From Candidatus Levyibacteriota bacterium (GTDB taxonomy: Bacteria > Patescibacteriota > Microgenomatia > Levybacterales > UBA12049): DNA of 64,000 nucleotides. The notes beneath the pieces are model-generated. The model searched no databases. It was given only the letters and a program-made list of their open reading frames with translations, and was not told where the DNA came from. Numbering within the stretch: the first letter of the stretch is position 1; every line of letters begins with the position of its first letter. Positions 689-29,370 of this stretch are shown here, one piece after another. The stretch lies in NCBI GenBank assembly GCA_016432345.1, contig CP066685.1:432236-496235 (forward strand), written 5' to 3'. The position numbers and the translations under genes were made by a program.

Positions 689-691
689 GCA

Positions 692-1336: not shown

Positions 1337-1340
1337 AAAA

Positions 1341-1940: not shown

Positions 1941-1941
1941 T

Positions 1942-14078: not shown

Positions 14079-14093
14079 TTTTTGATTATACTA

Positions 14094-15203
14094 CTAATTA
14101 TCCATTTCTACTTTTTCAAGTGTACGCATGCTTTTTTTGGCTGCATGCGCCCAACTAAATTTCTGTGACCATTTTATAGCATTTTTACTTAATGTTTCTC
14201 GAAGAGTCCTGTCGTTTAATACTTCACATATTTTATTAATCAATTCTTCTTCGTCTTTTGCTAATATACCTGTTTTCCCATTCTGTATTGATTCTGTTAA
14301 TCCTGAAACATTAAAAGAAACAGCAGGTGTTCCATATAAGTTTGCTTCTATAACAGCCATACCCCAACCTTCACCAATTGAAGGATTAACAACTAGCCAT
14401 GATTTGGATAACAAGGATTTTTTTTCCGCATCGTTTACCGGCCCAAGCAGGGTAATTTTTCTACGCAGTGGACTTTTCATAACCAAATTTGCTATATTGG
14501 ATGCCTCTGTTCCCCAACCAGCAATAATCAAACGGGTTTGAGGCATTTTTTCAATTATTTTAGGAAAAATTTTGACCAGCAAGTCAACCCTTTTATACCT
14601 CTTGATTCGTCCTAAATAGAGAATTGTCGGCGCAGAAAATTTTTTTATAGAGTTTTTTATAGTATTTGATCCGTTAATACCGCAATAAACAATAGAAATA
14701 TTTTTTTTGTTAAAGCCTATACTTATCAACTGTTTTTTTGTTGTTTCCGAAATGACAATAATAGAGAGATGTTTATAGAGGAAAGGGAAAACAAATCTTT
14801 CGACAATAAATCCAAAATAACTTAAAGGAAAGGGGAGTTCATAAAAAAATTGATCGCCGTGTAAATGGTATACATAGCTTACTTTAGGAATTCTACAAAA
14901 TAGGGGTGTAAAAAATGGAATCCCATTTACAACGTCCACTACAACATCGGCTTTTCCTCTAAAACGAGAAATATAATACCATATCGCCCAAAGATAAAGA
15001 TTATACCTACCGCCTTTTCTATAAATTTTTATGCCGTCTATTATTTCAAAAGAGGGAAGATTTTCTTCTATATCCTGTCCACAAAAAAGACTTACTTCAT
15101 GACCCATTTTTACCCAACGGGAGGCCTGTTCAAAAATATAAATCTCACCGCCTCCGGCCCAACTATGTTTGAGATCTCGCCAGTTAAAAATAAGTATTCT
15201 CAT
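14094..15203 (-). CDS. GT4-family glycosyltransferase (first gene of the minus-strand operon)
   Basis: The E-x7-E motif GEGWGMAVIEANLYGTPAV and the N-terminus MRILIFNW. I chose the ATG at 15203. The ORF-track start at 15218 is a TTG inside the predicted -10 element. Confidence 0.8.
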   Translation of the reverse strand: MRILIFNWRDLKHSWAGGGEIYIFEQASRWVKMGHEVSLFCGQDIEENLPSFEIIDGIKIYRKGGRYNLYLWAIWYYISRFRGKADVVVDVVNGIPFFTPLFCRIPKVSYVYHLHGDQFFYELPFPLSYFGFIVERFVFPFLYKHLSIIVISETTKKQLISIGFNKKNISIVYCGINGSNTIKNSIKKFSAPTILYLGRIKRYKRVDLLVKIFPKIIEKMPQTRLIIAGWGTEASNIANLVMKSPLRRKITLLGPVNDAEKKSLLSKSWLVVNPSIGEGWGMAVIEANLYGTPAVSFNVSGLTESIQNGKTGILAKDEEELINKICEVLNDRTLRETLSKNAIKWSQKFSWAHAAKKSMRTLEKVEMDN

Positions 15204-15217
15204 TTTAAGTTCGGTCA

Positions 15218-15246
15218 AGTATACTATAGCTACAATTTCTTATCAA
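15218..15246 (-). promoter_or_regulatory. Sigma70-type promoter TTGATA-N17-TATACT for the nine-gene minus-strand operon (15203 to 6321)
   Basis: Minus strand: -35 at 15246-15241, -10 at 15223-15218, 17-nt spacer. The ATG at 15203 is 14 nt downstream. Confidence 0.55.
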
Positions 15247-15267: not shown

Positions 15268-17577
15268 ATGCGGCGTATTAATTTTAGTTTTCTTAGGGAA
15301 CACAAGTTAGCCTTAGTAATCTGTATCATTCTTTTTATATTACCTTTTTTTTGGTTAAAACCAGGAGAAATGGATTTGGGGGGGGATAGCAGTCGATTAT
15401 TTTTCTACGATCCTCTAAATTATCTTAAAAACTCAAATCTTTATTATGTTGCAAGAGATGGAATAGGATCGGTTGAGCCTGAATATAGTTATGATTATGC
15501 CCTTATTCCATATTTAGCAATACTTATATTATTAAAATCCATATTTTCTTCTACTATTCTAATCAATTTATTTAATGGAGTAAAACTTGCCGGTGGATTC
15601 ATAGTAATATATTTTATAGTACGGGAATTTCTTTTAGAGACATACGGTAAGACTAAAAAAGATACACTTAATAATGTATCGGTATTAAGCGGAGTTTTTT
15701 ATATAGTTTCTCAAGGATCAATTAATTTGGTTGTCAGTTGGGAGACAGCTCTCACATCACATAATCAGTTTTTTATATATCCTCTTATTTTTTTCTTGCT
15801 TTTTAAATCTTTAATTACGCATAAATATAGCTATCTTTGGATTGCATTACTGATTAGTTTTATTTTTTCTCCAAATTTTGGAGGACTGGAGTCTATTCCA
15901 CCCTTTTTTGCATTCTGGCCAATAGTAGCAGTATTTTTGTTTCTGTATATAAAGATTTTTGGTAAAAAACCAATTTCATGGAAAATAATAATTATGGCAG
16001 CAGTACTTTTCTTAGGCGTTCATACTTTTCATCTTCTTGCTCAAGCAGTTAGCTTATTTGATAGCGGGAGTTTTACTAATGTTAAAGTTTTTGACAAATA
16101 TTATATGATAGACCTTGGGCTTAATATTTTTGGCGCTGTGCTTTCAAGCGGAATGGCAACCCTAAATTTTCTGCTTCCTTCTCCAAATATATTTCTTAGA
16201 TGGATATCTTTTCTGTCTGCATTAATAATTCTTGTCGGATTTATTTTAAACAAAAAAAAAGAATTTTTATTCATTTCTATTTTCTTTTTTATTACTTTTT
16301 TTTTCTCAACAGCCAATATAACAAATGTTGGAGTAGAATTTTATAAGAGTTTATTCTATCTACCTGGTTTTTCCATGTTTAGAATTTTTTCCAAATGGCT
16401 GTATGTTTTTGTTTTCTTTTACGCTTTATTATTTGGGTTTGCTGCGTATAGTATTAGCGAAAAGTTAAAAGTAAATTATTCAAAGCTTTTTTTTATTTTT
16501 GTTTTTACTTTTTTAATTATATCCGGTATTCCGCTATTTTCTGGAGCTCCAATAAATAAATCTTTAATAGGCGGTACCAATATAAAAAAAACCTTCTTAA
16601 TGGATTCTAAATATGAGCAAGTGCTTGAACATATTCGTACTTTACCGGATGACGGAAAGATATTAGTACTACCATTAGTTGGTTTTAATTATCAATTTTT
16701 CTTTGGTGTTGATTCGGGAGCATATTTAGGGCTTAGTTCGATAAGTCACTTAACAGATAAATATAGTTTTACAGGGGAACGACATTTTGGCGTTGCTGGG
16801 TTTTACGGGCCAAATTTATATAGTTATTTGGTTCAAAAATACGCCAAAGAAAAAAACTATAAAAGATTAAATCAGTTATTTACTCTTATGAATATTCGAT
16901 ATATTTTATATAATGCTGATTCAAGACAATACGAACGAGGATTTTCAGATACTCAATTTTTCTTGCCGGAATCCTTTCCCAAAACGAAAGCTGGATACGA
17001 TGAGTTTATAAGGCACTTTTCTATACAACAAATATATAAAAACGGCAATTATATTTTGTACGAATTTAGTAAATCCAGTTATAACTCTACTATTTTTATC
17101 CCAAAAGGAGTATATGAGAGCAATGATCTCATCTATGATGAGAAGAATTTACATTCAATTTTTATTGATAAAAATACTTGTAATATAAAAGAGTTTAAGG
17201 AAATTTGTAAAGGAGGTTATAACGCTTCAGACAACGATGTAAGTTTTAAAATGATAAATCCCGTCCTTTACGAAGTAACAATTATCAAAAAAAAACCACA
17301 AGACACAATACTTTTAGTTATGCAGCACGCCTTTAATAGAGCCTGGAAATTGATAATCGACAAAAAAAATGTATCGAAAGAGTCACATGTGTTAGTAAAT
17401 GGATATGCAAACGGATGGTTATTGGGTAAGGGTGATATTCCACAGGCAAAAAAATTTACAGTATTTATAAAACTCGATTCCCAAAAATATTTTTGGTATG
17501 GGTGGGTAGTAACAGCTGTTTCTTTAGCTGTTGTAATTGGATTATTAGTAGTTTCCATAGTTAAACAACGGCATTGA
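15268..17577 (+). CDS. Giant-family GT-C-like polytopic membrane protein, short form (paralog 1)
   Basis: 769 aa. The first ~430 aa hold about a dozen hydrophobic segments, followed by a large soluble region and a final TM helix (WVVTAVSLAVVIGLLVV). The loop motif PFFWLKPGEMDLGGDSSRLFFYDP and the blocks HNQFFIYPLIFFLL, IFSPNF, PGFSMFR, LPDDGKILVLP, NIRYILYNAD, INPVLYEV, FNRAWKL and VNGYANGW are shared with 34533, 37320 and 41633. Confidence 0.7.
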   Translation: MRRINFSFLREHKLALVICIILFILPFFWLKPGEMDLGGDSSRLFFYDPLNYLKNSNLYYVARDGIGSVEPEYSYDYALIPYLAILILLKSIFSSTILINLFNGVKLAGGFIVIYFIVREFLLETYGKTKKDTLNNVSVLSGVFYIVSQGSINLVVSWETALTSHNQFFIYPLIFFLLFKSLITHKYSYLWIALLISFIFSPNFGGLESIPPFFAFWPIVAVFLFLYIKIFGKKPISWKIIIMAAVLFLGVHTFHLLAQAVSLFDSGSFTNVKVFDKYYMIDLGLNIFGAVLSSGMATLNFLLPSPNIFLRWISFLSALIILVGFILNKKKEFLFISIFFFITFFFSTANITNVGVEFYKSLFYLPGFSMFRIFSKWLYVFVFFYALLFGFAAYSISEKLKVNYSKLFFIFVFTFLIISGIPLFSGAPINKSLIGGTNIKKTFLMDSKYEQVLEHIRTLPDDGKILVLPLVGFNYQFFFGVDSGAYLGLSSISHLTDKYSFTGERHFGVAGFYGPNLYSYLVQKYAKEKNYKRLNQLFTLMNIRYILYNADSRQYERGFSDTQFFLPESFPKTKAGYDEFIRHFSIQQIYKNGNYILYEFSKSSYNSTIFIPKGVYESNDLIYDEKNLHSIFIDKNTCNIKEFKEICKGGYNASDNDVSFKMINPVLYEVTIIKKKPQDTILLVMQHAFNRAWKLIIDKKNVSKESHVLVNGYANGWLLGKGDIPQAKKFTVFIKLDSQKYFWYGWVVTAVSLAVVIGLLVVSIVKQRH

Positions 17578-17616: not shown

Positions 17617-18219
17617 ATGACTAAAATTAGCACGAAGTATCGTGATAAAGCCCGAAAACGCTTATTGGAAAGTGCTGATGTTAAAAAAAAAGTTGCAGAA
17701 GAATGTTTAGAGTTAATTTTAATCGCCAGTCAAATGATAGTTGATACATTTGCATCCGGCGGAAAGGTAATGATTTGCGGCAATGGTGGCAGCGCAGCTG
17801 ACTCTCAGCATATGGCAGGAGAATTAGTTTGCATGTTAAATAAAGTATTTGAAAGACCAGGTCTTCCCGCGATTGCTTTAAGTACAGATACATCTATTTT
17901 GACAGCGCATGCCAACGATCTTGGTTTTGAAAAAATCTTTAAACGACAAGTCAACGCATTAGGTAAGGCTGGAGATGTATTAATTGGAATCACAACAAGT
18001 GGCAGTTCTCCAAATATTCTTGCCGCAATCAATTCCGCAAGAACTGCTAAAATACGTACAATCATGCTAACTGGGAACAGTAAAAAAACAAAAAAATTAG
18101 CGGATGTTGTATTGTCGGTTCCGAGTAGCAATACCCAATATATTCAAGAATCACATATAGCTATTGAACACATAATATGTGAGATTGTAGAAGATCATCT
18201 TTTTGGTGCAAAAAGGTAA
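17617..18219 (+). CDS. gmhA: Phosphoheptose isomerase (sedoheptulose-7-phosphate isomerase)
   Basis: ICGNGGSAADSQHMAGEL, ITTSGSSPNIL and QESHIAIEH. The 200-aa length is typical of GmhA. Confidence 0.85.
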   Translation: MTKISTKYRDKARKRLLESADVKKKVAEECLELILIASQMIVDTFASGGKVMICGNGGSAADSQHMAGELVCMLNKVFERPGLPAIALSTDTSILTAHANDLGFEKIFKRQVNALGKAGDVLIGITTSGSSPNILAAINSARTAKIRTIMLTGNSKKTKKLADVVLSVPSSNTQYIQESHIAIEHIICEIVEDHLFGAKR

Positions 18220-18222
18220 GAT

Positions 18223-19230
18223 ATGGTAATAAGTAGAACTCCTTTTCGAATTTCTTTTTTTGGCGGAGGAACTGATTATCCGGCGTGGTATAAAAAACAC
18301 GGTGGATCTGTTTTAGCTACCTCTATTAACAAATATTGTTATCTTTCTGTCAGATACCTACCTCCATTTTTTAATCACAAATATAGAATTGCTTATTCTA
18401 AAATTGAAAGCCGCAAAACTATTGGAGAAATTACACACCCTTCTGTACGGGAAATTTTGCGTTTTTTGAAAATAAAGCAAGGTTTGGAGATACATCATGA
18501 TGGCGATTTACCAGCAAGAAGTGGCTTAGGTTCTAGTTCTGCTTTCACTGTGGGTCTGCTTCACGCGCTTTATGCTTTAGGTGGTCATATGCCAAATAAA
18601 CATAAATTAGCCAAAGAGAGTATTTATCTTGAACAAAAAGTTCTTAAAGAAACAGTTGGATCACAAGATCAAGTATTAGCCGCCTATGGCGGATTTAATC
18701 TTGTAAATTTTTCTAAAAATGAAGAGATAACACTTAAGCCTATGACAATTTCCTTAAAACGTATTGAAGAGTTGCAGAATCATTTAATGCTTTTTTATAC
18801 TGGTATAGTTCGTACGGCTTCTGATATAGCTAAGAGCTATGTTAGCAATATCAATAGACAAGAAAAACAATTGGAGTTTATGCAGCAATTGGTAGATAAA
18901 GCTTTTTCAATTGTTAATAGCAAAAAAGATATAAGAGGTTTCGGAGAATTTTTAAACGAGTACTGGCAAATTAAGCGTTCGCTTAGTTCTGCAGTTTCTA
19001 ATCCAGAAATAGATGAATTTTATGAAAGGGCGTTATCGGCTGGAGCGTTAGGCGGTAAATTGATTGGCGCAGGCGGCGGAGGATTTTTTTTGTTTTTTGT
19101 TCCTCCAGCTAATCAAGCTAAAGTCAGAAAACAGTTTAACAAACTTATTCATGTCCCTTTCAAATTTGAGCATGAAGGATCCCAAATCATTTTTTATGAC
19201 CGAGAAGAAGATTATTCTTATTTCAAATGA
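18223..19230 (+). CDS. hddA: D-glycero-D-manno-heptose-7-phosphate kinase (GHMP family)
   Basis: RTPFRISFFGGGTDYP, PARSGLGSSSAFTVGLLHAL and GAGGGGFFLFF. It lies directly downstream of gmhA. Confidence 0.8.
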   Translation: MVISRTPFRISFFGGGTDYPAWYKKHGGSVLATSINKYCYLSVRYLPPFFNHKYRIAYSKIESRKTIGEITHPSVREILRFLKIKQGLEIHHDGDLPARSGLGSSSAFTVGLLHALYALGGHMPNKHKLAKESIYLEQKVLKETVGSQDQVLAAYGGFNLVNFSKNEEITLKPMTISLKRIEELQNHLMLFYTGIVRTASDIAKSYVSNINRQEKQLEFMQQLVDKAFSIVNSKKDIRGFGEFLNEYWQIKRSLSSAVSNPEIDEFYERALSAGALGGKLIGAGGGGFFLFFVPPANQAKVRKQFNKLIHVPFKFEHEGSQIIFYDREEDYSYFK

Positions 19231-20216
19231 GCAAACAAAATAACATCCAAAAAGTACTCATAACAGGAATTAGCGGTTCAGGTGGCAGCTACCTGGCCGA
19301 ATATATAGTGAATAATCATCCAAAAGTTTCGGTGCATGGAATTTCCCGCTGGCACTCAACCACAGTAGATAATTTAAGTTTAGTCCATAAAAAAGTTACT
19401 GTTCACGAAGCAGATTTAATGGATATGGGTTCCATAATTGAGGTTTTGCAAAAAGTAAAGCCTGATGCTATTTTTCATTTAGCAGCTCATGCAAACGTTA
19501 GAGCATCATTTATTACTCCCATTGCAGTATTAAATAACAATATCATCGGCACTGCTAATCTTTTTGAGGCGATTCGATTAGGCAATAATTATCCTATTAT
19601 CCAACTTTGCTCTACATCAGAAGTCTATGGACAAGTAGATCCCAAGTTTGTCCCTATTAAAGAAGATACACCAATTAAACCAGCTAGTCCCTATGCTGTG
19701 TCAAAAACAACTCAAGATTTATTGGGATGGAGTTATTTTGTAAGTTATAAGATGCCAATTATTCGTACGCGCATGTTTGCATATGTAAATCCACGTAGAG
19801 CGGATTTATTTGCCTCTGCTTTTGCCAAACAAGTAGCTTGGATCGAAGAGGGTTTGCAAGAAAAGCTCGTTCATGGAAATTTGGATTCTGTCCGAACATT
19901 TATCGATGTGCGAGATGCTATGAGAGCGTATTGGGAAGCAATAGCGCACTGCGAACCAGGAGAGGTTTATAATATTGGAGGTACAACCACGATGACAGTA
20001 GGTGAATTCCTAAAAAAATTAATCTCAATGGCTAAAGTTCCTATTCCAACTATTCTTGATCCTAACTTACTTCGTCCGGCTGATGTTACACTTCAAATTC
20101 CTTCTGTTGAAAAATTCATTAAGAAAACTGGTTGGAAACCTATTTATTCTTTTGAAGAGAGTATAAGCGAATTGTTTTCCTACTGGAGGGAGCAAGCAAA
20201 AAAGCAAAAAAAATGA
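19227..20216 (+). CDS. GDP-mannose 4,6-dehydratase / GDP-4-keto-6-deoxymannose reductase (Gmd/Rmd)-like SDR
   Basis: VLITGISGSGGSYLAEY, CSTSEVYG, YAVSK, and the C-terminal LRPADVTLQIPSVEKFIKKTGWKP typical of the Gmd/Rmd clade. Confidence 0.65.
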   Translation: MSKQNNIQKVLITGISGSGGSYLAEYIVNNHPKVSVHGISRWHSTTVDNLSLVHKKVTVHEADLMDMGSIIEVLQKVKPDAIFHLAAHANVRASFITPIAVLNNNIIGTANLFEAIRLGNNYPIIQLCSTSEVYGQVDPKFVPIKEDTPIKPASPYAVSKTTQDLLGWSYFVSYKMPIIRTRMFAYVNPRRADLFASAFAKQVAWIEEGLQEKLVHGNLDSVRTFIDVRDAMRAYWEAIAHCEPGEVYNIGGTTTMTVGEFLKKLISMAKVPIPTILDPNLLRPADVTLQIPSVEKFIKKTGWKPIYSFEESISELFSYWREQAKKQKK

Positions 20217-21151
20217 ATGCAAAAATTTACCGTTCGTTATATAGAATTAGACGCGTAGAAGAAGAGATCGGAAAAGTCTACCCAACTGATAAAATCAAAA
20301 GCCCAGTACATCTTTCAATTGGACAGGAAGCTGTATCGGTAGGGGTTTGTCTTGCTTTAGACTCTCAAGATATAGTTTTCGGCACTTACCGCGGCCATGC
20401 GCTTTACTTAGCAAAGGGTGGAAATTTAAAGAAAATGATTGCAGAACTCTACGGAAAAGCCACAGGTTGCGCTAAAGGAAAAGGAGGCTCAATGCATCTT
20501 ATTGATGTAGCAGCAGGCGTAATGGGAGAATCTGCTATTGTGGGAACAACTATTCCGCAGGCTGTTGGGTATGCCTATGCTTTAAAAATTAAGAGAAGTA
20601 GTAGCGTTGTGGTAAGTTTTTTTGGTGATGGAGCAGTGGAGGAGGGAGTTTTTCATGAAAGTATGAATTTTGCTGCACTTAAAAAACTTCCTATTATATT
20701 TATCTGTGAAAATAACTTTTATGCCATTCATACCCATCAAATGAAAAGGCAGGCAAATCCAAAAATTTGGGAAAGAGTAAAATCATACGGAATATCTTCA
20801 GAGCGAATAGTTGGTAACGATCTTTTCAAAATATACCAACATGTTGGTAATGCTGTTAAGGCTTTACGATCTGGAAAATTAGGTCCAATTTTCTTTGAAT
20901 GCACAACTTATCGGCTAAAGGAGCATGTAGGTCCAAATGAGGATTACTATTTAGGATATAGAACAAGGGAGGAGGCAGAACCTTGGTTAAAAAATGATCC
21001 TCTCCAAAAACTAGCCTTGCTTATTAAATCAAAAAACCGTCAAGAGATTGAAAAAGAAGTAGAAAAAGAAATTGTTGAGGCTTTTGCATATGCCGAAAAA
21101 AGTCCGTTTCCAAAAGGTTCTGAATTATTTACAGAGGTTTTTAAAGACTAA
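20213..21151 (+). CDS. TPP-dependent 2-oxoacid dehydrogenase E1 alpha-like subunit
   Basis: The TPP motif GDG-X26-NN (GDGAVEEGVFHESMNFAALKKLPIIFICENN, nt 20624-20716), and YRGHA and MHL upstream. Confidence 0.8.
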   Translation: MNAKIYRSLYRIRRVEEEIGKVYPTDKIKSPVHLSIGQEAVSVGVCLALDSQDIVFGTYRGHALYLAKGGNLKKMIAELYGKATGCAKGKGGSMHLIDVAAGVMGESAIVGTTIPQAVGYAYALKIKRSSSVVVSFFGDGAVEEGVFHESMNFAALKKLPIIFICENNFYAIHTHQMKRQANPKIWERVKSYGISSERIVGNDLFKIYQHVGNAVKALRSGKLGPIFFECTTYRLKEHVGPNEDYYLGYRTREEAEPWLKNDPLQKLALLIKSKNRQEIEKEVEKEIVEAFAYAEKSPFPKGSELFTEVFKD

Positions 21152-21152
21152 T

Positions 21153-22199
21153 ATGAAACGAAATCTAACTTATGTAGAAGCAATACGTGAGGCAAGCGAT
21201 CAAGAAATGGATCGAGATAAATCCGTGATTGTATTTGGTTTGGATGTAGATGATCCAAAAGCAATACAGGGCACAACCGAGGGACTTTTGAGAAAATATG
21301 GTGCAGAAAGAGTTTTTGGTACTCCACTTTCTGAAGATGCTATGACAGGCGCAGCGATAGGCATGGCGCTTGCGGGTTTTAGACCAATCCATATTCATAT
21401 CCGAATGGATTTTATTCTTCTTGCAATGAATCAGTTGATTAATATTGCCGCCAAATACAACTATATGTATGGAGGACAAATCAACATACCTTTAGTTGTG
21501 CGTTCCATGATAGGAAAAAGCTGGGGTCAGGGCGCACAACATTCCCAAAGTTTATACTCATTTTTTATGCATGTCCCGGGCTTAAAAGTGGTTGCGCCCA
21601 CAACTCCATATGATGCCAAGGGTTGTCTTATTACAGCTATAAGAGACAATAATCCTGTAATCTATATTGAACATCGTATTCTACATTTTCAAAAGGGTTA
21701 TGTTCCGAAGAAGTTATATACCGTTCCTTCAGGCAAAGCAAGAATTACCGTTAAAGGTAAAGATATTACTCTTGTTGGTATTTCCTATATGCAGATTGAG
21801 TGTCAGAGAGCCGCACGTTATCTTGAAGGTGCAGGAATTAAGGCAGAAGTTATAGATCCAATCTGGTTATCGCCATTAGATATTGATACAATCGTTGCAT
21901 CTGTTAATAAAACTGGCAGATTAATTGTTGTGGATAATGATTGGACAACTTGTGGGGCAGGCAGTGAGATTGTCTCTATGGTTTTAGAAAAATTACAAGG
22001 AAAAAGAGTTATAAAAGTCCGTCGTTTAGGTTTTGCTCCTGTAACTTGCCCTCCGACTCCGCCACTTGAAAAACTTTTTTACCCTGATGGACGTGGTATT
22101 GCATCAGTTGCTTTTGATTTAGTTAAAGGTGGACAAAGCAAGTGGGTTCCAGATGAGCAAATAGATCTTAAAGAAATTGAATTTAAAGGACCTTTTTAA
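21153..22199 (+). CDS. TPP-dependent 2-oxoacid dehydrogenase E1 beta-like subunit
   Basis: LTYVEAIREA...VFGLDV...GTPLSEDAMTGAAIGMALAGFRPI is a transketolase-like pyrimidine-binding domain. The ATG at 21153 lies 1 nt after the alpha stop. Confidence 0.8.
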   Translation: MKRNLTYVEAIREASDQEMDRDKSVIVFGLDVDDPKAIQGTTEGLLRKYGAERVFGTPLSEDAMTGAAIGMALAGFRPIHIHIRMDFILLAMNQLINIAAKYNYMYGGQINIPLVVRSMIGKSWGQGAQHSQSLYSFFMHVPGLKVVAPTTPYDAKGCLITAIRDNNPVIYIEHRILHFQKGYVPKKLYTVPSGKARITVKGKDITLVGISYMQIECQRAARYLEGAGIKAEVIDPIWLSPLDIDTIVASVNKTGRLIVVDNDWTTCGAGSEIVSMVLEKLQGKRVIKVRRLGFAPVTCPPTPPLEKLFYPDGRGIASVAFDLVKGGQSKWVPDEQIDLKEIEFKGPF

Positions 22200-23377
22200 T
22201 GAAAAATTTAGATCTACCTTTAATGAAAGATAATATCACTCGGGAAGATTTGGATACCCTTATCGAGTTTTTGAAACAGGAAGATCCGATGTTGACTCAA
22301 GGAAAAAATGTTTTAGAGTTTGAAAGGGAATGGTCAAAATGGCTGGGAGCTAAATATAGTGTGTTTGTTAATTCGGGTTCATCAGCTAATTTAATTACTT
22401 TGTCTGCTTTAAGGGAATCTGTGGGATTAGGCGAAATAATTGTTCCTCCCTTAACTTGGGTGTCGGATATCGCATCGGTAATACAGTGCGGTTTTAAACC
22501 TATCTTTGCAGATATAAATCTGAAAACACTTGGAATGGATACTGATAAAATACTTGAAAAAATTACACCTTATACTAAGGCTGTTTTTATAACTCATATA
22601 TTAGGATTTAATGCCTTAACTCAAAAATTATTAGATGAGTTAAAGAAAAGAAATATTCCTTTAATTGAGGATGCGTGCGAATCGCATGGAGCAACCTTTA
22701 ATGGTAAGAAAGTTGGAACCTTCGGCTTAATGTCTAATTTTTCTTTCTACTATGCGCATCACATGAGCACTATTGAAGGGGGTATGGTTTCAACAAATGA
22801 TAGTAAATTATATGAAATGCTAAGAATGTTTCGAGCACATGGTATGGTAAGAGAATCTATTGCAAATAGATTGAAACAAAGTTACTATAAAAAATATTCT
22901 GACTTAAACCCTGATTTTATTTTTGCTTTTCCAGCTTTTAATGTTCGCTCCACTGAAATTAGCGCGGTTTTGGGACGTGCTCAAATTAAAAAATTAGATA
23001 GTAATAATAAAATTCGTTCTGAAAATTTTAGAATTTTTTTAGAAAATTTAGATAAAAAGATTTTTTATACTGATTTTGATATTACAGGCAGTTCCAATTA
23101 TGCCTTTATTCTAATTTTGAAAAATCCTGATATGAAACTTTGTAAAAGAATAATGACAACTCTTCATAAGTTTGGTATTGAATTTCGCAGAGGTACTTCT
23201 GGTGGGGGGAATCAACTTAGGCAGCCATACCTTAAAAAGATTGTTGGTGAAAAAGAGCATGAAAAATATCCAAATGTAGAACATATCCATTTTTATGGAT
23301 TTTATATTGGTAACTATCCAACGCTCGACAAGGAAAAAATTTTAAAGCTTTGTGCCATTTTAAATAATATAAAATGA
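22199..23377 (+). CDS. ColD-like PMP-dependent nucleotide-sugar 3-dehydratase (DegT/EryC1 family)
   Basis: 392 aa with VNSGSSANLITLSAL. The PLP-Lys position is occupied by His-His (FSFYYAHHMSTIEGG, codons 187-188). It has no CxC iron-sulfur motif, unlike 7352-8656. Confidence 0.65.
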   Translation: MKNLDLPLMKDNITREDLDTLIEFLKQEDPMLTQGKNVLEFEREWSKWLGAKYSVFVNSGSSANLITLSALRESVGLGEIIVPPLTWVSDIASVIQCGFKPIFADINLKTLGMDTDKILEKITPYTKAVFITHILGFNALTQKLLDELKKRNIPLIEDACESHGATFNGKKVGTFGLMSNFSFYYAHHMSTIEGGMVSTNDSKLYEMLRMFRAHGMVRESIANRLKQSYYKKYSDLNPDFIFAFPAFNVRSTEISAVLGRAQIKKLDSNNKIRSENFRIFLENLDKKIFYTDFDITGSSNYAFILILKNPDMKLCKRIMTTLHKFGIEFRRGTSGGGNQLRQPYLKKIVGEKEHEKYPNVEHIHFYGFYIGNYPTLDKEKILKLCAILNNIK

Positions 23378-24318
23378 AAACAAAAGTTGTAATTTGCGGC
23401 GCGAGTGGTTTTATTGGTAGAAATATAGCCGAAAAACTGGCAGAAAGAGACGATTTAGAAGTCTTTGGGACATATTTTAAAAATAAACCAGCCTTGCTTT
23501 CCAAAAAAATTAAGCTTATTCAAGCTGATTTAACTAAGATTAAAGATGTAGACAAGGTAATTATGGGGAAAGATATTATTATTCAGGCCTCTGCAGTAAC
23601 TTCCGGATCCAAAGATATTGTCACAAAACCTTATATGCATGTTACTGACAATGCAGTTATGAACAGTCTTATTTTTAGAAGCGCTTTTGAAAATAAACTA
23701 AAACATGTCGTTTTTTTTAGCTGTACAGTTATGTATCCAAATATTGATAGACCAGTAAAAGAAGAAGATTTTAACTATCAAATAACAGATAAGTATTTTG
23801 GTGTTGGCTGGACGAAAGTTTACTTAGAAAAGATGTGCGAGTTTTTCTCTAAAATTTCCAAAACTAAATATACAGCAATTAGACATTCCAATATTTATGG
23901 CCCATTCGATAAGTACGACTTAGAGCACTCACACGTCTTTGGAGCCACTATCACAAAGATCATGACAGCTAAAGACAAAATTGTAGTATGGGGAGACGGA
24001 TCTGAAGCCAGAGATTTATTATATGTGTCAGATCTGGTAGATTTTGTAGAATTGATACTTAAGCACCAAAAAACTCCCTTCGAACTGGTCAATGTCGGAT
24101 TTGGTTCTGCTGTTTCGGTTGCAAATTTAGTTAAGAAGATTATTGAAGTCTCGGGTAAAAAAATAAAAATTGAATTTGATATATCAAAACCTACTATTAA
24201 GTTTAGCCTTTCTTTAAATCTTGATAAAGCTAAGAAGGTGTATAATTGGAAACCGAAGGTAACTATTGAAGAAGGTATTAAAAAAACAATTAGTTGGTAT
24301 CAACAAAATATTTCATGA
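23374..24318 (+). CDS. NAD(P)-dependent nucleotide-sugar epimerase/reductase (extended SDR)
   Basis: VVICGASGFIGRNIAEKL and YLEK (YxxxK context VGWTKVYLEKM). ATGA overlaps at both ends. Confidence 0.7.
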   Translation: MKTKVVICGASGFIGRNIAEKLAERDDLEVFGTYFKNKPALLSKKIKLIQADLTKIKDVDKVIMGKDIIIQASAVTSGSKDIVTKPYMHVTDNAVMNSLIFRSAFENKLKHVVFFSCTVMYPNIDRPVKEEDFNYQITDKYFGVGWTKVYLEKMCEFFSKISKTKYTAIRHSNIYGPFDKYDLEHSHVFGATITKIMTAKDKIVVWGDGSEARDLLYVSDLVDFVELILKHQKTPFELVNVGFGSAVSVANLVKKIIEVSGKKIKIEFDISKPTIKFSLSLNLDKAKKVYNWKPKVTIEEGIKKTISWYQQNIS

Positions 24319-25298
24319 ATTTTTATAAAGGTAAAAAAGTACTTGTTACAGGTGGGACAGGTTTGATAGGCAGACCATTGGTGGAAATGTTGGTCGAAGC
24401 AGGCGCCAAGGTAGTCGTGGTTTCTCTTGATGACCCCAGTCGGGCGCCCAAAGGCGTCAAATTTATCCGTGCCGATTTGCGGGAGTTTAGCAACTGTATG
24501 CAGGCATGTAAATATCAGGAGATTGTTTTTCATTTGGCAGGAATTAAAGGTTCACCAAAAATGACTGCCCAACAACCTGCCAGTTTTTTTGTTCCCACTA
24601 TTACTTTTAATACTAATATGATGGAGGCAGCAAGAAGGCAAAATCTTAAAAGATTTTTGTATACAAGTACCATTGGGGTATATTCACCAGCTGAAATTTT
24701 CCATGAAGATGATGTCTGGAAAACCTTCCCATCTGTTAATGACCGTTTCGCCGGATGGGCAAAAAGAATGGGTGAACTACAGGCACAGGCATATAAAATC
24801 GAATATGATTGGGATAAAATATCAATAGTCAGGCCGGCCAATGTGTATGGCCCATTTGATAATTTTGATCCTGACACAGCAATGGTTATTCCTTCGCTTA
24901 TCCACAGAGCTCTAAGTGGAGAAAATCCTTTAACAGTCTGGGGTGATGGTTCAGCAATTCGAGATTTTATTTATTCTAAAGATGTAGCCCGCGGCATGAT
25001 GTTAGCTATTGAAAAAGGAATTAATGTTCCTGTAAATTTAGGCAGCGGTGCTGGAGTAACTATCAAAGAGATAGCAGAGGTTATTGCAAAAAATGTACCT
25101 GGCGGACCTATTAAGATTATTTGGGATAAAGATAAGCCTAAAGGAGATGCCAAAAGACTTATGGATATGAAAAGGGCTAAAAAACTATTAGGATTTAAAC
25201 CCATATATTCTTTGGAACAAGGAATAAAAGAAACAATTGCATGGTATCTTAATAATAAAGATCTTCTAAATAAAAGGTATAATGTTTTTCGTGAATAG
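24315..25298 (+). CDS. NAD(P)-dependent nucleotide-sugar epimerase/reductase (extended SDR)
   Basis: KVLVTGGTGLIGRPLVEML and TSTIGVYS. The start at 24315 forms an ATGA overlap with the upstream stop. Confidence 0.7.
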   Translation: MNFYKGKKVLVTGGTGLIGRPLVEMLVEAGAKVVVVSLDDPSRAPKGVKFIRADLREFSNCMQACKYQEIVFHLAGIKGSPKMTAQQPASFFVPTITFNTNMMEAARRQNLKRFLYTSTIGVYSPAEIFHEDDVWKTFPSVNDRFAGWAKRMGELQAQAYKIEYDWDKISIVRPANVYGPFDNFDPDTAMVIPSLIHRALSGENPLTVWGDGSAIRDFIYSKDVARGMMLAIEKGINVPVNLGSGAGVTIKEIAEVIAKNVPGGPIKIIWDKDKPKGDAKRLMDMKRAKKLLGFKPIYSLEQGIKETIAWYLNNKDLLNKRYNVFRE

Positions 25299-26046
25299 CT
25301 TTTTAATTACTGGTACTTCTAGCGGGCTTGGTAAATATCTTTATGCAAATTTAGGCGGAATTTCCTTAAATAGGGAAAAAATTCAAAAAAATGGCGCAGA
25401 GATAATCATTCATTGTGCTTTTAACTCGGAAAATAATCCTAAGGATTCAGATCAATACTATAACGATAATGTTTTATTAACCAAAAGATTGACCAAAATT
25501 CCCCATACAAAGTTTATATTTGTTTCTTCGGTTGATGTATATCCAAAAAATTCAAATAGACATACAGAGAGTGAAATTATAGACATGCATAATGTAGAGA
25601 GTTTATATGCCAAAACAAAACTTTTATCTGAAGATTTAGTCAAAAAGAATTGCCCTAATTTTTTAATTCTAAGATGCAGCGCTCTGTTAGGAAAAGACTC
25701 CAGAAGAAATAGCTTAATTAAAATCATTGAGGAAAAAAAACCTACTCTAACACTTTCTGGCGACTCCATATCCAATTATATTTTGCACGAAGATGTTTTA
25801 AGTTTTATTAAGGCGGCTTCAGAAAAAGATTTACAAGGAATATATAATCTGGCATCCTCTAAAAATATAACTCTAAAACAAGTTACAGATTTAGTTAAGA
25901 AAAAAGTTACTTTTGGAGATTATGTATATAATGTAGGAAACATAGATAATAGTAAAACAGTTTCTATCTCCAAAGTTTTTAAAAAAACTTCACGAGAGAT
26001 AATTACTGAATTCGTTAGCCATAACACAGTAAACCCAACAAGTTGA
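25282..26046 (+). CDS. Short RmlD-like NAD(P)-dependent reductase
   Basis: FLITGTSSGLGKYL, VSSVDVYP and YAKTK (YxxxK). 254 aa. Confidence 0.55.
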   Translation: MFFVNSFLITGTSSGLGKYLYANLGGISLNREKIQKNGAEIIIHCAFNSENNPKDSDQYYNDNVLLTKRLTKIPHTKFIFVSSVDVYPKNSNRHTESEIIDMHNVESLYAKTKLLSEDLVKKNCPNFLILRCSALLGKDSRRNSLIKIIEEKKPTLTLSGDSISNYILHEDVLSFIKAASEKDLQGIYNLASSKNITLKQVTDLVKKKVTFGDYVYNVGNIDNSKTVSISKVFKKTSREIITEFVSHNTVNPTS

Positions 26047-26071
26047 AATAGCTTTTATCTTATAGTATAAT
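26043..26071 (+). promoter_or_regulatory. Sigma70-type promoter TTGAAA-N17-TATAAT, ATG 6 nt downstream (leaderless configuration)
   Basis: -35 at 26043-26048 (overlaps the upstream TGA stop), -10 at 26066-26071, ATG at 26078. Confidence 0.6.
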
Positions 26072-26077
26072 ATAAGC

Positions 26078-27127
26078 ATGCTAGAACGCTTAGCGCAACT
26101 TGGAAGAGCTCTCCAAGCTGCTGGTAATCTTGATATACGTGTTAACAGAAGAGGTTTTCTTAAAGGTGGATTATCGGTTGTAGGTGTATTTACACTGTCT
26201 GGGTGTGAGCCAGCACCTTCTACATCAGCTCCTTCCCAAGCTACTATAGAAATAGGACAACCTGAAATAGAGTTGCGTGATATCACAAGCAGTTTTAATC
26301 ATGAAAATCTTTCTGATCCAGAACCCAGAAGTAAAGTAGTAGAATTAACTGCCTCAATAACGGAAAAACTCCAGTTAAACAGTTTAACAAAAGAACAAAT
26401 GGTTGCATCTATCGTTTGGGTAGAAGATCCCCTTCCACGAGCGCGTGAGAAAGCGCAAAGAAAAAAAACTTCTATAGAGAGTGAGCTTGCAAGAATGAGA
26501 ACGTGGTCTGCTGAGACGGATAATGGCAAAGTATACGTATACATACATGCTTCTACTCTTCAAAAATCTTACTGGGAGTTGCAACCACAATTACACTGGA
26601 ATCCGCTTAAAGAACTCGTGCACGCGCTTGACCATGAATGGAAGCACCTCGAAGTTAGAGAAAGAACAGATGCACGCATGGATACACTCCTTGATCCAGA
26701 GAATGCTTTTTCTGGTAAAGTTATTACTGGCTTTAGAATGAATGGCACTAATGCATCAGAATTTCCGAAATCCGTATATGCCCAGCTTGATGAAGGAATA
26801 ACAGATTATCTTGCCACACAATCAGTACTATCATATTTTGGAGCAGTGGTGAATTCGGCAGATGTTGCAACAATGGTTGATTATTTCCCAATAATTTTTA
26901 AAGAAGCTGGAATTCTTCCACAGACAATACAACAACTGCATCAAGAATCAAAATTTTATGAATTTTTGATTTTGTTAGCCAAAATTAAGGGAGTAGAAGG
27001 GTCTATCATAACTGAGAGGCAACAAGTTCTGGCTGGACTTGCTGTTGTAAATGCACTTGTTAATAACGATAAGCCAACGATAGAAAAATACATTCAAGCT
27101 ATCCGTGAGAATAAAGCTCATCATTAG
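26078..27127 (+). CDS. Predicted secreted lipoprotein with HEXXH motif (function unknown)
   Basis: The N-terminus NRRGFLKGGLSVVGVFTLSGC is Tat-like RR plus a lipobox Cys. HEWKH is at nt 26633-26647. GC is visibly higher than in the neighbours. It has its own TTGAAA-N17-TATAAT promoter. Confidence 0.5.
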   Translation: MLERLAQLGRALQAAGNLDIRVNRRGFLKGGLSVVGVFTLSGCEPAPSTSAPSQATIEIGQPEIELRDITSSFNHENLSDPEPRSKVVELTASITEKLQLNSLTKEQMVASIVWVEDPLPRAREKAQRKKTSIESELARMRTWSAETDNGKVYVYIHASTLQKSYWELQPQLHWNPLKELVHALDHEWKHLEVRERTDARMDTLLDPENAFSGKVITGFRMNGTNASEFPKSVYAQLDEGITDYLATQSVLSYFGAVVNSADVATMVDYFPIIFKEAGILPQTIQQLHQESKFYEFLILLAKIKGVEGSIITERQQVLAGLAVVNALVNNDKPTIEKYIQAIRENKAHH

Positions 27128-27665
27128 TGTGTGTTTTCAAAATTGTGTTTACTGCAGAATATAAGTCATCAACTACAAAATCAGGATTAACTATATTTTC
27201 TTTTTCCACCATCGTTCCATAGCCGGTACGTACCAAAAAGGTAGTTGCTCCCATTTTTTGCCCCAACTCAATATCGATTGCCTTATCGCCAATCACAAAA
27301 CTCTCTTGTGGATTAAAATCATGGTCTTTTAAGGCTTGCTCTATAAGACCTAATTTTGGTTTCCTGCAATGACAATTATCTTCTGCTTTGTGAGGGCAAA
27401 AATAAATACCATCGAGAATAACACCTTCTGCAGCTAGTAAATCTAGCATTCTTTTATGAATTAATTTTAGATCATCAAGATTAAAGTAACCTCTACCAAC
27501 CCCTGCTTGATTAGTTACTACCAGAAGTCCAAATCCCAACTCTCTTAATTTTTTAAGTCCTATGGCTGCATTGGAAATCAGTTCAACTTGGTTATGATGA
27601 GATAAGTAATTGCGTTCTGTAATTATAGTGCCATCGCGGTCAAGTATTACAAATTTTCTTTTCAT
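27099..27665 (-). CDS. gmhB: D,D-heptose 1,7-bisphosphate phosphatase (HAD-IIIA)
   Basis: FVILDRDGTII, VVTNQAGVGRGYF, CPH...CHCRKPKLG and GDKAIDIELG. Confidence 0.8.
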   Translation of the reverse strand: MKRKFVILDRDGTIITERNYLSHHNQVELISNAAIGLKKLRELGFGLLVVTNQAGVGRGYFNLDDLKLIHKRMLDLLAAEGVILDGIYFCPHKAEDNCHCRKPKLGLIEQALKDHDFNPQESFVIGDKAIDIELGQKMGATTFLVRTGYGTMVEKENIVNPDFVVDDLYSAVNTILKTHTNDELYSHG

Positions 27666-28369
27666 ATTGAGCCAAAAAAACTTTGGGCTTCTTGATAAGA
27701 CTTAGGTGTACCAATATCTATAAATTTTCCTTTGGCCTCAAATCCATAAAAATCTTTTCCAATTAATGTTGGAAACAATTCTTTCTCGAATGAGACTGCT
27801 TTATTTTTGGGGATTTTCAAAAGCAGTGGTTTTTTAAATAAATAGATGCCACTGTTGATAAGTCCTGTTCCAACCTTTCCATGTTTTTCTTGAAACGAAG
27901 TAATTTTATTGTTTTTATCCAACACAACCTGTCCGTATCTATCAAGATTAGAGACCCTAGTTAATAAAATTGAAGCTTTAGATTTTTTTTGGAGGTGAAA
28001 TTGCCAAAACTTTTTTAGATCAAAGTCTAAATAAGAATCGCCATTGGTAACTAAAATATCCTCTGTTTTTATAAAAGGTAAAGCTAATCTTATGGCGCCG
28101 GCTGTATCCAATTTTGAATTTTCTTGAGAGTAATAAATGGACAGATTGCCATATGTATTGCCAAATTCTTTTTTGACTTGTTCGCCCAAGTGTCCTGTGC
28201 AAATGATAACTTTCTTAATGCCTGTTTTTTGTAACTTATCTAATATATACTTTAGGAAGGGATAATTTTTTACGGTAGCTAAAACTTTCTGCTTTCTTTT
28301 TATTGCGGAGCTAAGTCTTGTTCCTAATCCTCCTGCTAAAATTGCCGCAGTGATATCTTCTAAATCCAT
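27662..28369 (-). CDS. hddC: Sugar-1-phosphate nucleotidyltransferase, heptose-1-phosphate guanylyltransferase-like
   Basis: ILAGGLGTRL and VTNGDSYLD. 235 aa, overlapping gmhB by 4 nt. Confidence 0.65.
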   Translation of the reverse strand: MDLEDITAAILAGGLGTRLSSAIKRKQKVLATVKNYPFLKYILDKLQKTGIKKVIICTGHLGEQVKKEFGNTYGNLSIYYSQENSKLDTAGAIRLALPFIKTEDILVTNGDSYLDFDLKKFWQFHLQKKSKASILLTRVSNLDRYGQVVLDKNNKITSFQEKHGKVGTGLINSGIYLFKKPLLLKIPKNKAVSFEKELFPTLIGKDFYGFEAKGKFIDIGTPKSYQEAQSFFGSI

Positions 28370-29302
28370 CTAAATATTTTTGAATTCCAAACGCCTAATA
28401 AGTTGATAGCCTTTTATAAGTTCTTTTATTCCTTCATCTAGTGTTTTTTTTGCTTCAAATCCAGCAGTTTTGAGCCTTTGGCTTAAGACAATATAGTTTC
28501 TTTTGTCAGGGTCTGAGTTTATTTCTGCAAAATCAATATAAAATTTAGGGAGATGCTGTTTGATTTTTCCTGCTAACTCTTCTTTTGTTAGATTTTCAGA
28601 ATCTAAGCCAAGATTATATGCTTTTCCAGTCATTTTCTTGTGATTTTCAATGGAGAAGATAAAACAATCAATAACATCGCGAATATGAACAAAATTTCTT
28701 TTAAAATTTTTTTCAAAAAGCACAATATATCCATCAGTTAGGGCGGTATATACAAAGTGGTTCACCAGTAAATCTAGTCTTAATCGTGGAGACATGCCAA
28801 AAACCGAAGCAAGCCTAAGGGTAATGGTATTTTTTGATGATAACAACTCTATTTCTGCGTCAGTCTTAGTTTTTCCATAGAGCGTTACTGGTTTAAGCGG
28901 TGTTTCTTCTGTGCAAAAATTTCCGCAGGAGGGGGTACCATATCCATTATTTGTCATAGGAAAAACGACTAATTGATCTTTGCTTCGTAACTTGTTAAGT
29001 AGTTTTATAGAGTCTAAATTTGTCGTTGTAGCAAGATAGGGATCACTGTCGCAAGCAGAAGTTCCGACAATTGCTGCAAGGGGAACTACAACATCAGCAT
29101 TTTTAAGAAGTTTACTCATTAAGCTTTTGTCTCGGACATCTCCAAAAACAAAATCAAAATTGGGATTGTTACATAAATGGAATAGGCTTTTTTGTCGATA
29201 TATGAGGTTATCTATTGCTGTAACGTTATAGCCTTTATCCAAGAGAATCTCGCAGAGAACTGATCCTAAATAACCTGCGCCCCCCGTGACCAAAATATTC
29301 AT
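28370..29302 (-). CDS. NAD-dependent nucleotide-sugar epimerase/dehydratase (extended SDR)
   Basis: MNILVTGGAGYLGSVL and YGKTK (YxxxK). It is the operon head, with a TTGAAT-N17-TACAAT promoter 6 nt upstream of the ATG. Confidence 0.75.
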   Translation of the reverse strand: MNILVTGGAGYLGSVLCEILLDKGYNVTAIDNLIYRQKSLFHLCNNPNFDFVFGDVRDKSLMSKLLKNADVVVPLAAIVGTSACDSDPYLATTTNLDSIKLLNKLRSKDQLVVFPMTNNGYGTPSCGNFCTEETPLKPVTLYGKTKTDAEIELLSSKNTITLRLASVFGMSPRLRLDLLVNHFVYTALTDGYIVLFEKNFKRNFVHIRDVIDCFIFSIENHKKMTGKAYNLGLDSENLTKEELAGKIKQHLPKFYIDFAEINSDPDKRNYIVLSQRLKTAGFEAKKTLDEGIKELIKGYQLIRRLEFKNI

Positions 29303-29341: not shown

Positions 29342-29370
29342 TTGAAACTTGATACAATTTTTGATATAAT
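29342..29370 (+). promoter_or_regulatory. Sigma70-type promoter TTGAAA-N17-(TGa)TATAAT, ATG 7 nt downstream (leaderless configuration)
   Basis: -35 at 29342-29347, extended -10 TG at 29362-29363, -10 at 29365-29370, ATG at 29378. The -35 lies 4 nt from the divergent -35. Confidence 0.65.

Follow-up and report, generated by a model that had tools for sequence, protein, structure and literature searches.

Gene content of the locus

We analyzed a 64-kb stretch of contig CP066685.1 from a Candidatus Levyibacteriota bacterium (hereafter, the window), focusing on a plus-strand gene cluster at 17617-26046 in which enzymes of the heptose-activation type accompany the two subunits of an E1 enzyme dependent on thiamine pyrophosphate (TPP; also thiamine diphosphate, ThDP). 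Family scans of its open reading frames (ORFs) indicate that the window, with ~34% GC, is nearly all a glycan-synthesis island: it carries nucleotide-sugar enzymes, C- and O-methyltransferases, glycosyltransferases of the GT2 and GT4 families, and a PMT_2-like GT-C protein.

ORF calling and family scans recovered all nine genes of the cluster at the positions and in the order listed in a preliminary description of this DNA. The cluster opens with a GmhA-type sedoheptulose-7-phosphate isomerase (17617-18219; SIS_2, TIGR00441 180 bits) and an HddA-like GHMP kinase, a putative heptose-7-phosphate 1-kinase (18223-19230; GHMP_kinases_N and _C, top NCBIfam model HddA). Next comes an extended short-chain dehydrogenase/reductase (SDR) resembling Gmd and DmhA (19227-20216; GDP_Man_Dehyd 5e-68), a probable GDP-heptose 4,6-dehydratase for which an Rmd-like reductase is the alternative. 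The TPP-binding E1 alpha (20213-21151; E1_dh 4e-67) and E1 beta (21153-22199, in an ORF spanning 21072-22199; Transket_pyr and Transketolase_C) subunits, which resemble the orphan pairs of the alpha-KADH2 class, precede a ColD-type sugar 3-dehydratase dependent on pyridoxal or pyridoxamine phosphate (PLP/PMP; 22199-23377; DegT_DnrJ_EryC1 4e-69, PDB 2gms). The last three genes encode further SDRs: SDR1, an extended, GDP-fucose-synthase-like reductase/epimerase (23374-24318; Epimerase 1e-37); SDR2, extended and Fcl/UXS/GalE-like (24315-25298, in an ORF open from 24294; Epimerase 4.5e-48), whose start is probably the ATG at 24315 that overlaps the SDR1 stop; and SDR3, short and RmlD-like, with TGTSSGLG and YAKTK motifs (25282-26046; weak matches to Epimerase and RmlD_sub_bind). 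A search of the PDB returned only distant characterized relatives for these three, with top matches of only ~83 bits for SDR1 (whose top NCBIfam model, Fcl, scores 133 bits against a cut-off of 500), at most 121 bits for SDR2 and at most 27 bits for SDR3.

Throughout the cluster, consecutive genes are joined by ATGA or TAATG overlaps or by spacers of 1-3 nt, which indicates a translationally coupled operon of nine genes. The start of E1 beta had previously been placed inside E1 alpha, at the beginning of the ORF (21072); the true ATG is at 21153, one base past the E1 alpha stop. On the minus strand, family scans identified the two genes already reported at 27099-28369, a GmhB-like HAD phosphatase, putatively acting on heptose 1,7-bisphosphate at position 7 (27099-27665; Hydrolase_like), and an HddC-like heptose-1-phosphate guanylyltransferase (27662-28369). 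The earlier list of this strand had overlooked a third, codirectional gene immediately upstream of both, an SDR at 28370-29302 that we call Cj1427-like. A scan for promoters and terminators gave site counts no higher than in shuffled sequence; two promoter-like sites matching at 11 of 12 positions (26043-26071 and 29342-29370) are weak hints of operon ends.

An orphan E1 alpha/beta pair

Read directly, E1 alpha holds an intact GDG-X26-NN motif for ThDP/Mg2+ binding, with its 26-residue spacer, as first described. The closest solved structures of both subunits are the E1 components of pyruvate dehydrogenase (PDH) and branched-chain 2-oxo-acid dehydrogenase (BCKDH), and the alignments show the catalytic histidines to be kept, in E1 alpha at human His263 and in E1 beta at G. 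stearothermophilus His128. Being conserved, these residues cannot tell a carboligase from a dehydrogenase.

Other features set the pair apart from PDH. E1 alpha scores 310.6 bits against the NCBIfam model PDH_E1_alph_y (TIGR03182; cut-off 393.85), and E1 beta 282.9 bits against PRK09212 (cut-off 321). With 312 aa, E1 alpha lacks in the alignment ~35 N-terminal residues of its human PDH counterpart. E1 beta (PDB 3duf_B, 3.5e-64) extends ~22 residues beyond the C-terminus of 3duf_B, the G. stearothermophilus E1 beta, and it is this free C-terminus that docks the E2 subunit-binding domain in the PDH of that species. The family to which the window protein belongs ends in ...[F/Y]-x-G-P-F (...EFKGPF in the window, codons 22100-22196). 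We found this FxGPF tail in 58 of 83 loci fetched around E1 homologs and, searching 1.84 billion 50%-identity cluster representatives, in 49 of the best 150 (16 of the first 18); its bearers include alpha-beta fusion proteins of ~670 aa. The scores below the PDH cut-offs, the missing N-terminal segment and the FxGPF extension together argue for a large and distinct E1 subfamily.

No E2 (lipoyl) or E3 component was found among the window ORFs of at least 150 aa by family scans, in line with the preliminary description, and E2/E3 families are absent from the 25 commonest Pfam families among 136 neighbor genes at 33 related loci. This absence, the scores below the PDH equivalog cut-offs, the coupling of the genes between the Gmd-like and ColD-like enzymes and the conserved sugar neighbors described below support the earlier view that the pair is an orphan sugar-pathway enzyme and not a catabolic dehydrogenase. 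The analogy drawn at that time with AviB1/AviB2 agrees with the literature, where AviB1/B2, Pau11/12 and the in-vitro-characterized KbDH-alpha/beta form the alpha-KADH2 class, whose sugar enzymes add a pyruvate-derived two-carbon unit (C2) at C3 or C4 of keto sugars (PMC12247030, PMC4802897, PMC4753412).

Putative enzymes of heptose activation, 4-keto formation and 3-dehydration

The SIS, GHMP kinase, HAD-IIIA and NTP_transferase families expected of heptose activation are all four present, each with a heptose enzyme as its top NCBIfam and/or PDB match. GmhA (SIS_2 1.4e-23) scores 189 and 180 bits with phosphoheptose isomerase models whose cut-offs are 276 and 209 (TIGR00441), respectively. 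The kinase scores 159 bits with HddA, far below the cut-off of 600, and its top PDB matches are the heptose kinases 3k85, 4n3o and 4usk/4ut4. The GmhB-like phosphatase reaches 169.4 bits with PRK08942 (cut-off 178). The HddC-like protein, with HddC as its top NCBIfam model (160 bits, cut-off 300), has as its top PDB match 6jq8/5xhw, a Yersinia "6-deoxy-D-mannoheptose pathway protein." With scores under the equivalog cut-offs, the identity of the substrate is inferred from these best matches and from context. At the left edge of the window (2-2607, plus strand) lies a second heptose-type set, in which a GHMP kinase, truncated where the window begins, is accompanied by a SIS isomerase, a HAD phosphatase and a protein of the transaldolase/FSA family; the set as a whole could supply sedoheptulose-7-phosphate.

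Two enzymes may generate a 4-keto sugar. The Gmd-like SDR, which starts within the HddA stop (ATGA), has STSE and YxxxK motifs and is likely a dehydratase, judging from its sequence; its PDB matches are Rmd (2pk3, 1.3e-54) versus the Campylobacter jejuni GDP-D-glycero-D-manno-heptose 4,6-dehydratase (7us5, 4.8e-52). The SDR at 28370-29302, which has a TNNGYG motif without the dehydratase glutamate, matches PDB 6vo6/6vo8 over its full length (residues 2-309; 336 bits, E = 2.7e-99). We take 6vo6 to be C. jejuni Cj1427, the GDP-heptose C4-dehydrogenase, and name the window gene after it on that assumption. The C4-dehydrogenase function of Cj1427 on GDP-heptose is documented (PMC10680097, PMC7949155). 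Thus, the window would hold two routes to GDP-4-keto-heptose, a Cj1427-like one that keeps the 6-hydroxyl and a Gmd/DmhA-like one that removes it, and with both present the product may keep its 6-hydroxyl.

The DegT-family enzyme at 22199-23377 has ColD as its top PDB match (2gms, 4.4e-59). Its "AHH" aligns on the ColD "SHH," of which the first histidine is residue 188, since the H188N mutant (3b8x) reads "SNH." A histidine at the position of the Schiff-base lysine identifies the enzyme as dehydratase-type and not as an aminotransferase, and the surrounding motif, NFSFYYAHHMSTIEGG, is near-identical in 20 related loci. Read by eye for the [2Fe-2S] cysteine motif of E1/RfbH-type dehydrases, without a formal motif search, the protein shows only four scattered cysteines, and it scores 199 bits with the RfbH model (cut-off 423); the other DegT protein of the island (7352-8656) scores 679 bits with this model, above the cut-off. 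No cupin-type C5 or C3/C5 epimerase (dTDP_sugar_isom or cupin) was found among the window ORFs of at least 150 aa.

Conservation of the cassette across bacterial lineages

Homologs of E1 alpha are very numerous, with 54-91% identity across many phyla and ~70% in phyla other than that of the host. We fetched 83 loci of 20 kb around E1 homologs and assigned each ORF to its best-matching window protein; 36 of these loci carry close E1 pairs, and the neighbor counts below refer to them. They include cyanobacteria, Nitrospirota, Chloroflexi, Planctomycetes, Binatia, Verrucomicrobia and the candidate phyla radiation (CPR), and synteny of the cassette extends to at least 12 phylum-level lineages. A DegT enzyme stands beside the E1 pair in 30 of the 36 loci. 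The HddA-like kinase is found in 28 (360-630 bits), the Cj1427-like SDR, among the best-conserved partners of the pair, in 20 (340-640 bits), where it usually leads the cassette, and HddC in 18; the Gmd-like SDR (15), GmhA (14) and SDR3 (5) are less frequent. A Cj1427-like or Gmd-like enzyme occurs in nearly every locus with enough flanking sequence, and the partner DegT ORFs have histidine at the Schiff-base position in all 28 that were aligned, the lone lysine-type ORF (L004) belonging to an upstream operon. Even E1 pairs at ~50% identity (L043, L048 and L073) keep a histidine-type DegT gene, HddA and a Cj1427-like gene.

The most frequent arrangement is Cj1427-like, HddC, (GmhB), (GmhA), HddA, SDR, E1 alpha, E1 beta, ColD-like, seen in Microcoleus, Floridaenema, Dapis, Nodosilinea PCC 7104, Nitrospirae, Binatia, Deltaproteobacteria and Caldilineaceae. 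Here, the position ahead of E1 alpha is taken by a GDP-fucose-synthase-like SDR (ASSCSYPK) and not by a Gmd-like one. The GC content of the cassette loci is that of their hosts (34-62%). Recurrence around close E1 homologs in at least 12 lineages implies that the arrangement is not accidental, and probably means that the cassette makes an undescribed carbon-branched surface sugar.

Some loci add further genes or depart from this pattern. The Pfam families among 136 other neighbor genes include B12-dependent radical SAM proteins (14/136), glycosyltransferases, NUDIX, DAO (4/136) and methyltransferases. A B12-binding radical-SAM gene follows the ColD-like gene in cassettes of cyanobacteria, Nitrospirae and others (L001, 15210-18212; L002, 13241-17143; also L007, L025, L026 and L028), often with a DAO-family FAD oxidoreductase, which suggests further C-methylation. 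A more distant E1 clade, at 45-50% identity, occurs in loci within the range L038-L083, among them those of Leptospira (L059), Legionellaceae (L061/L078) and Chlamydiae (L053/L066/L068/L081). Its neighbors are SIS proteins, 4,6-dehydratase-like and other SDRs, and lysine-type DegT aminotransferases instead of the histidine type; it appears to represent a different, also uncharacterized sugar cassette. Finally, three loci from metagenome-assembled genomes labeled "uncultured Gammaproteobacteria" (L004, L005 and L006) have an operon with 80-84% nucleotide identity to the window and a GC content of 34-36%. Either this label or that of the window as Candidatus Levybacteria is probably wrong.

A split transketolase in the same island

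Upstream of the nine-gene operon, a minus-strand operon (6321-15218) encodes a GT4 glycosyltransferase, glucose-1-phosphate cytidylyltransferase-like and CDP-glucose 4,6-dehydratase-like proteins, a C-methyltransferase, an SDR, a split transketolase, an RfbH-type dehydratase and a GT2 glycosyltransferase. The split transketolase (8637-10390, minus strand) has its N-terminal part at 9554-10390 and its C-terminal part at 8637-9557, and adjoins the RfbH-type histidine dehydratase with the 679-bit score. The island had been said to hold two independent TPP-based branching modules. Both sets of TPP genes are present, but their independence is doubtful: homologs of the split transketolase share a fetched locus with E1 pairs in L024, L030, L042, L044, L049 and L053, which suggests that the two modules may cooperate.

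Predicted pathway and alternatives

On the conserved gene neighborhood, we consider it very probable that the E1 pair takes part in some form of nucleotide-heptose modification. The combination of an SDR that forms a 4-keto group, a histidine-type 3-dehydratase and a TPP enzyme follows the logic of yersiniose synthesis, and leads us to propose a branching route. By analogy, the E1 pair would be an alpha-KADH2-type carboligase that adds a pyruvate-derived C2 to C4 of a GDP-3-deoxy- or GDP-3,6-dideoxy-4-keto-heptose, a reading to which we give a probability of roughly 0.55.

The route would start from sedoheptulose-7-phosphate and end in a C-branched deoxyheptose, activated with GDP and destined for a glycan of the cell surface. 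Its first three steps are predicted from family assignments. Once GDP-heptose is made, a 4-keto group would be installed by the Cj1427-like C4-dehydrogenase, with the 6-hydroxyl kept, and/or by the Gmd/DmhA-like 4,6-dehydratase, giving a 6-deoxy sugar. The ColD-type enzyme would then strip the 3-hydroxyl, consuming glutamate and releasing 2-oxoglutarate, to yield GDP-3-deoxy- or GDP-3,6-dideoxy-4-keto-heptose. Analogy and synteny suggest the steps that follow. An E1 alpha/beta heterotetramer, acting without E2 or E3, would decarboxylate pyruvate on thiamine diphosphate, and the resulting hydroxyethyl carbanion would attack the C4 carbonyl to give a 4-C-acetyl tertiary alcohol, whose side-chain ketone one of the downstream SDRs would reduce to 1-hydroxyethyl. 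The remaining SDRs may epimerize or reduce, or may serve a second, unbranched heptose product, and the glycosyltransferases of the island would use the branched sugar. More speculatively, the 2-oxoglutarate released by the ColD-type step could feed the Cj1427-type step, and the DAO-family gene could reoxidize the L-2-hydroxyglutarate thus formed.

The preliminary description had proposed a 3,6-dideoxy-heptose route. Its heptose scaffold and ColD-like 3-deoxygenation find support in a precedent from C. jejuni HS:5 (PMC10440746); the 6-deoxy part is uncertain, given that the widespread cassette has a Cj1427-like enzyme and an Fcl-like SDR in place of the Gmd-like gene of the window.

Several points weigh against the proposed branching at C4. 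The donor, the acceptor carbon and the order of the reactions are assigned by analogy, for a cassette known from its sequence alone. Once C4 is quaternary, three to four SDRs exceed what is needed, so that some of the operon may be devoted to another sugar. The Gmd-like enzyme scores equally well against the Rmd reductase as against the heptose dehydratase, and GmhA, HddA, GmhB and HddC are all divergent members under their NCBIfam equivalog cut-offs. The literature that we searched has no C-branched heptose and no heptose-linked E1 cassette, with the proviso that the cassette may overlap the list of Krug et al. (2024), which holds ~120 alpha-KADH2 clusters.

The strongest alternative, which we regard as appreciably less likely than C4 branching with pyruvate, keeps the E1 pair in the nucleotide-heptose pathway and assigns to it a different TPP reaction. 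The donor could be hydroxypyruvate, 2-oxobutyrate or the 2-oxoglutarate released by the ColD-type enzyme, the pair could extend the chain at an oxidized C7 aldehyde, or it could cleave a C-C bond as transketolases or acetoin lyases do. Synteny speaks only for pathway membership and not for the reaction. Moreover, the alpha-KADH2 superfamily also holds the acetoin-cleaving Ao:DCPIP oxidoreductase (PMC12247030), YerE-like enzymes take donors from C3 to C8 (PMC9306805), and both the split transketolases found in E1 loci, which hint at more elaborate carbon chemistry, and the B12-radical-SAM gene that often follows the dehydratase can be cited in its favor. However, the sugar alpha-KADH2 enzymes, characterized or inferred, all install a pyruvate C2 (PMC12247030), and the almost constant presence of a 3-dehydratase beside the pair suggests that, as with YerE, the electrophile is the carbonyl of a 3-deoxy-4-keto sugar; TPP chemistry that cleaves the ring, in turn, would destroy the glycosyl donor.

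We consider it improbable that the kinase, the nucleotidyltransferase and the SDRs act on a sugar other than heptose (e.g., a hexose or a fucose-type sugar), with the GmhA- and GmhB-like proteins serving another pathway. The low scores of HddA, HddC, GmhA and GmhB relative to their equivalog cut-offs would allow it, the second-best match of the kinase is a fucokinase, and several related loci have no GmhA or GmhB. Yet the top PDB matches are of heptose type for the kinase, for HddC and, tied with Rmd, for the Gmd-like enzyme (7us5), as also for the SDR at 28370-29302 if 6vo6 is, as we presume, Cj1427. Cyanobacterial cassettes do include GmhA and GmhB, and Gram-negative bacteria whose cassette lacks them normally carry both for the core of their lipopolysaccharide (LPS). 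The transaldolase and the second kinase/SIS/HAD set of the window also fit a supply of sedoheptulose-7-phosphate.

Least likely of all, and in our opinion very improbable, is that the pair serves as the E1 of a common catabolic dehydrogenase for pyruvate, acetoin or branched-chain 2-oxo acids, with its E2/E3 elsewhere in the genome. In favor of this reading, PDH/BCKDH E1 subunits are the top matches in Pfam, NCBIfam and the PDB, the active-site histidines of both subunits appear conserved and our inspection covered 64 kb of a ~762-kb contig. Against it, neither subunit reaches its PDH equivalog cut-off, their genes are translationally coupled between sugar enzymes, the free C-terminus of E1 beta has given way to the FxGPF extension, and the conserved synteny is a strong counterargument, with sugar neighbors kept in more than 30 loci of many phyla and E2/E3 absent among the common ones.

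Implications of the predicted C4 branching on a heptose

If the predicted C4 branching of a GDP-heptose is right, the enzymology would be familiar, and the novelty would lie in the substrate, the biological setting, the breadth across phyla and the expected product. Carbon-branched sugars are rare, and this locus puts both antibiotic-type enzymes, the E1 alpha/beta pair and the split transketolase, into a surface-glycan context, with a heptose as the scaffold and a spread over at least 12 phyla. Should the inferred chemistry hold, environmentally important bacteria would bear an undescribed nine-carbon branched monosaccharide, and the family would be a large new source of ThDP carboligases that accept ketones, of use in making chiral tertiary alcohols. 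The carriers of the cassette include the culturable Nodosilinea nodulosa PCC 7104.

More tentatively, and with somewhat less confidence than in C4 branching by this pair, we suggest that an unrecognized, large, E2-independent subfamily of FxGPF-tailed E1 enzymes is a standard tool of envelope-glycan synthesis across bacteria, one widespread branch of which makes a nine-carbon, C4-branched 3-deoxyheptose from GDP-heptose. If this is true, alpha-KADH2 sugar branching shifts from a curiosity of actinomycete antibiotics to a common feature of bacterial surfaces, and a new class of monosaccharides is predicted in cyanobacteria, anammox bacteria, Nitrospirota and CPR. For the CPR host studied here, a glycan island of more than 60 kb on a contig of ~0.76 Mb suggests that the surface sugar coat is of great importance to its lifestyle.

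Other genes of the island

Between the two heptose-type gene groups, a plus-strand gene (26078-27127) encodes a 349-aa protein without a Pfam family, with a twin-arginine-like signal (RRGFLKGG...SGC) and a HEWKH (HExxH) motif. The promoter-like site at 26043-26071 lies directly upstream, and the 3' end of the gene overlaps the convergent 3' end of GmhB by 29 nt.

Four large paralogs, all on the plus strand (15268-17577, 34533-36953, 37281-40994 and 41594-45367; 769, 806, 1237 and 1257 aa), match each other at 350-825 bits and have no Pfam match. Each has 10-12 predicted transmembrane helices in its N-terminal 420 residues, a kept PFFW..PGEMDLGGDSSRLYFYDP loop and a C-terminal transmembrane anchor. 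They may be GT-C-like glycosyltransferases. The first precedes the nine-gene operon, and a homolog of this 769-aa type also precedes the operon in L005 and L006. A DUF3800 protein unrelated to sugar synthesis (62935-63678, plus strand) ends a run of glycosyltransferases and may mark the border of the island.

Comparison with known systems

The capsular heptose pathways of C. jejuni (HS:5/HS:11; Cj1427/MlghA) share with the window the activation by GmhA, HddA, GmhB and HddC, and likewise employ a GDP-heptose 4,6-dehydratase and/or a Cj1427-type C4-dehydrogenase, a ColD-like PLP-dependent C3-dehydratase and SDR reductases (PMC10440746, PMC10680097, PMC7949155). Enzymes of this species have yielded both acceptors that we propose, GDP-3,6-dideoxy-4-keto-heptose as well as, in vitro, GDP-3-deoxy-4-keto-heptose (PMC10440746, PMC10680097). 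In these pathways, however, C. jejuni has no TPP enzyme, uses cupin-type C3/C5 epimerases and makes unbranched products, whereas the window has a TPP pair and lacks the cupin epimerases.

A parallel in reaction logic is the synthesis of yersiniose, where C4 of CDP-3,6-dideoxy-4-keto-glucose receives activated acetaldehyde through YerE (PMC9306805). YerE/YerF of yersiniose A, ErwE, MMAR_2332 and MygE belong to pathways that, like the one proposed here, proceed from a 4-keto sugar through a histidine-type, PMP-dependent 3-dehydratase to a TPP-dependent acyl branch at C4 and a reductase (PMC9306805), and both serve LPS or other surface glycans. The enzymes differ: YerE is a single-chain, acetolactate-synthase-like flavoprotein of the decarboxylase superfamily acting on a CDP-hexose, while the window has an E1 alpha/beta pair and, by prediction, a GDP-heptose. 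The window scans found no YerE-like protein that combines TPP_enzyme_N, M and C domains in one chain. We also considered erwiniose and caryophyllose as products of a heptose with C-methylation and a C2 branch, and rejected this, since both are made from CDP-3,6-dideoxy-4-keto-glucose and long-chain keto-acid donors by YerE-like enzymes (PMC9306805).

The split-gene transketolases of miharamycin and amipurimycin, for which hydroxyacetylation of a keto sugar has been proposed, have a counterpart in the split transketolase at 8637-10390 (minus strand), where, next to the RfbH-type enzyme, the pairing of a dehydratase with a TPP enzyme is seen again; they belong to a TPP superfamily distinct from that of the E1 pair. 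A review counts 13 candidates of this kind, every one from Streptomycetes and none assayed so far (PMC12247030).

The E1 pair itself is most like the antibiotic alpha-KADH2 pairs, namely AviB1/B2 (avilamycin), Pau11/Pau12 = Plm8/Plm9 (paulomycin), those of aldgamycin and kosinostatin, and KbDH (kibdelomycin), which have separate E1 alpha and beta genes without E2/E3. AviB1/B2, Pau11/12 and the aldgamycin pair are backed by genetics and feeding, and KbDH-alpha/beta was characterized in vitro with ketone acceptors (PMC12247030, PMC4802897, PMC4753412). Likened by gene content and published descriptions, the antibiotic and window pairs both stand within a pathway for an NDP-deoxy-keto-sugar and have an intact TPP motif, and in both the expected reaction is the addition of a pyruvate C2 onto a ring ketone, followed by ketoreduction. 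In the division of roles drawn by a recent review, YerE-like enzymes make LPS sugars, and alpha-KADH2 enzymes and split transketolases make secondary metabolites, the antibiotics of actinomycetes (PMC12247030). The antibiotic pairs act on dTDP- or UDP-activated deoxyhexoses and pentoses in secondary-metabolite clusters of actinomycetes, whereas the window pair would act on a GDP-heptose in an envelope glycan island with many glycosyltransferases, and its relatives are found in hosts as diverse as CPR bacteria, cyanobacteria, Nitrospirota and Planctomycetes.

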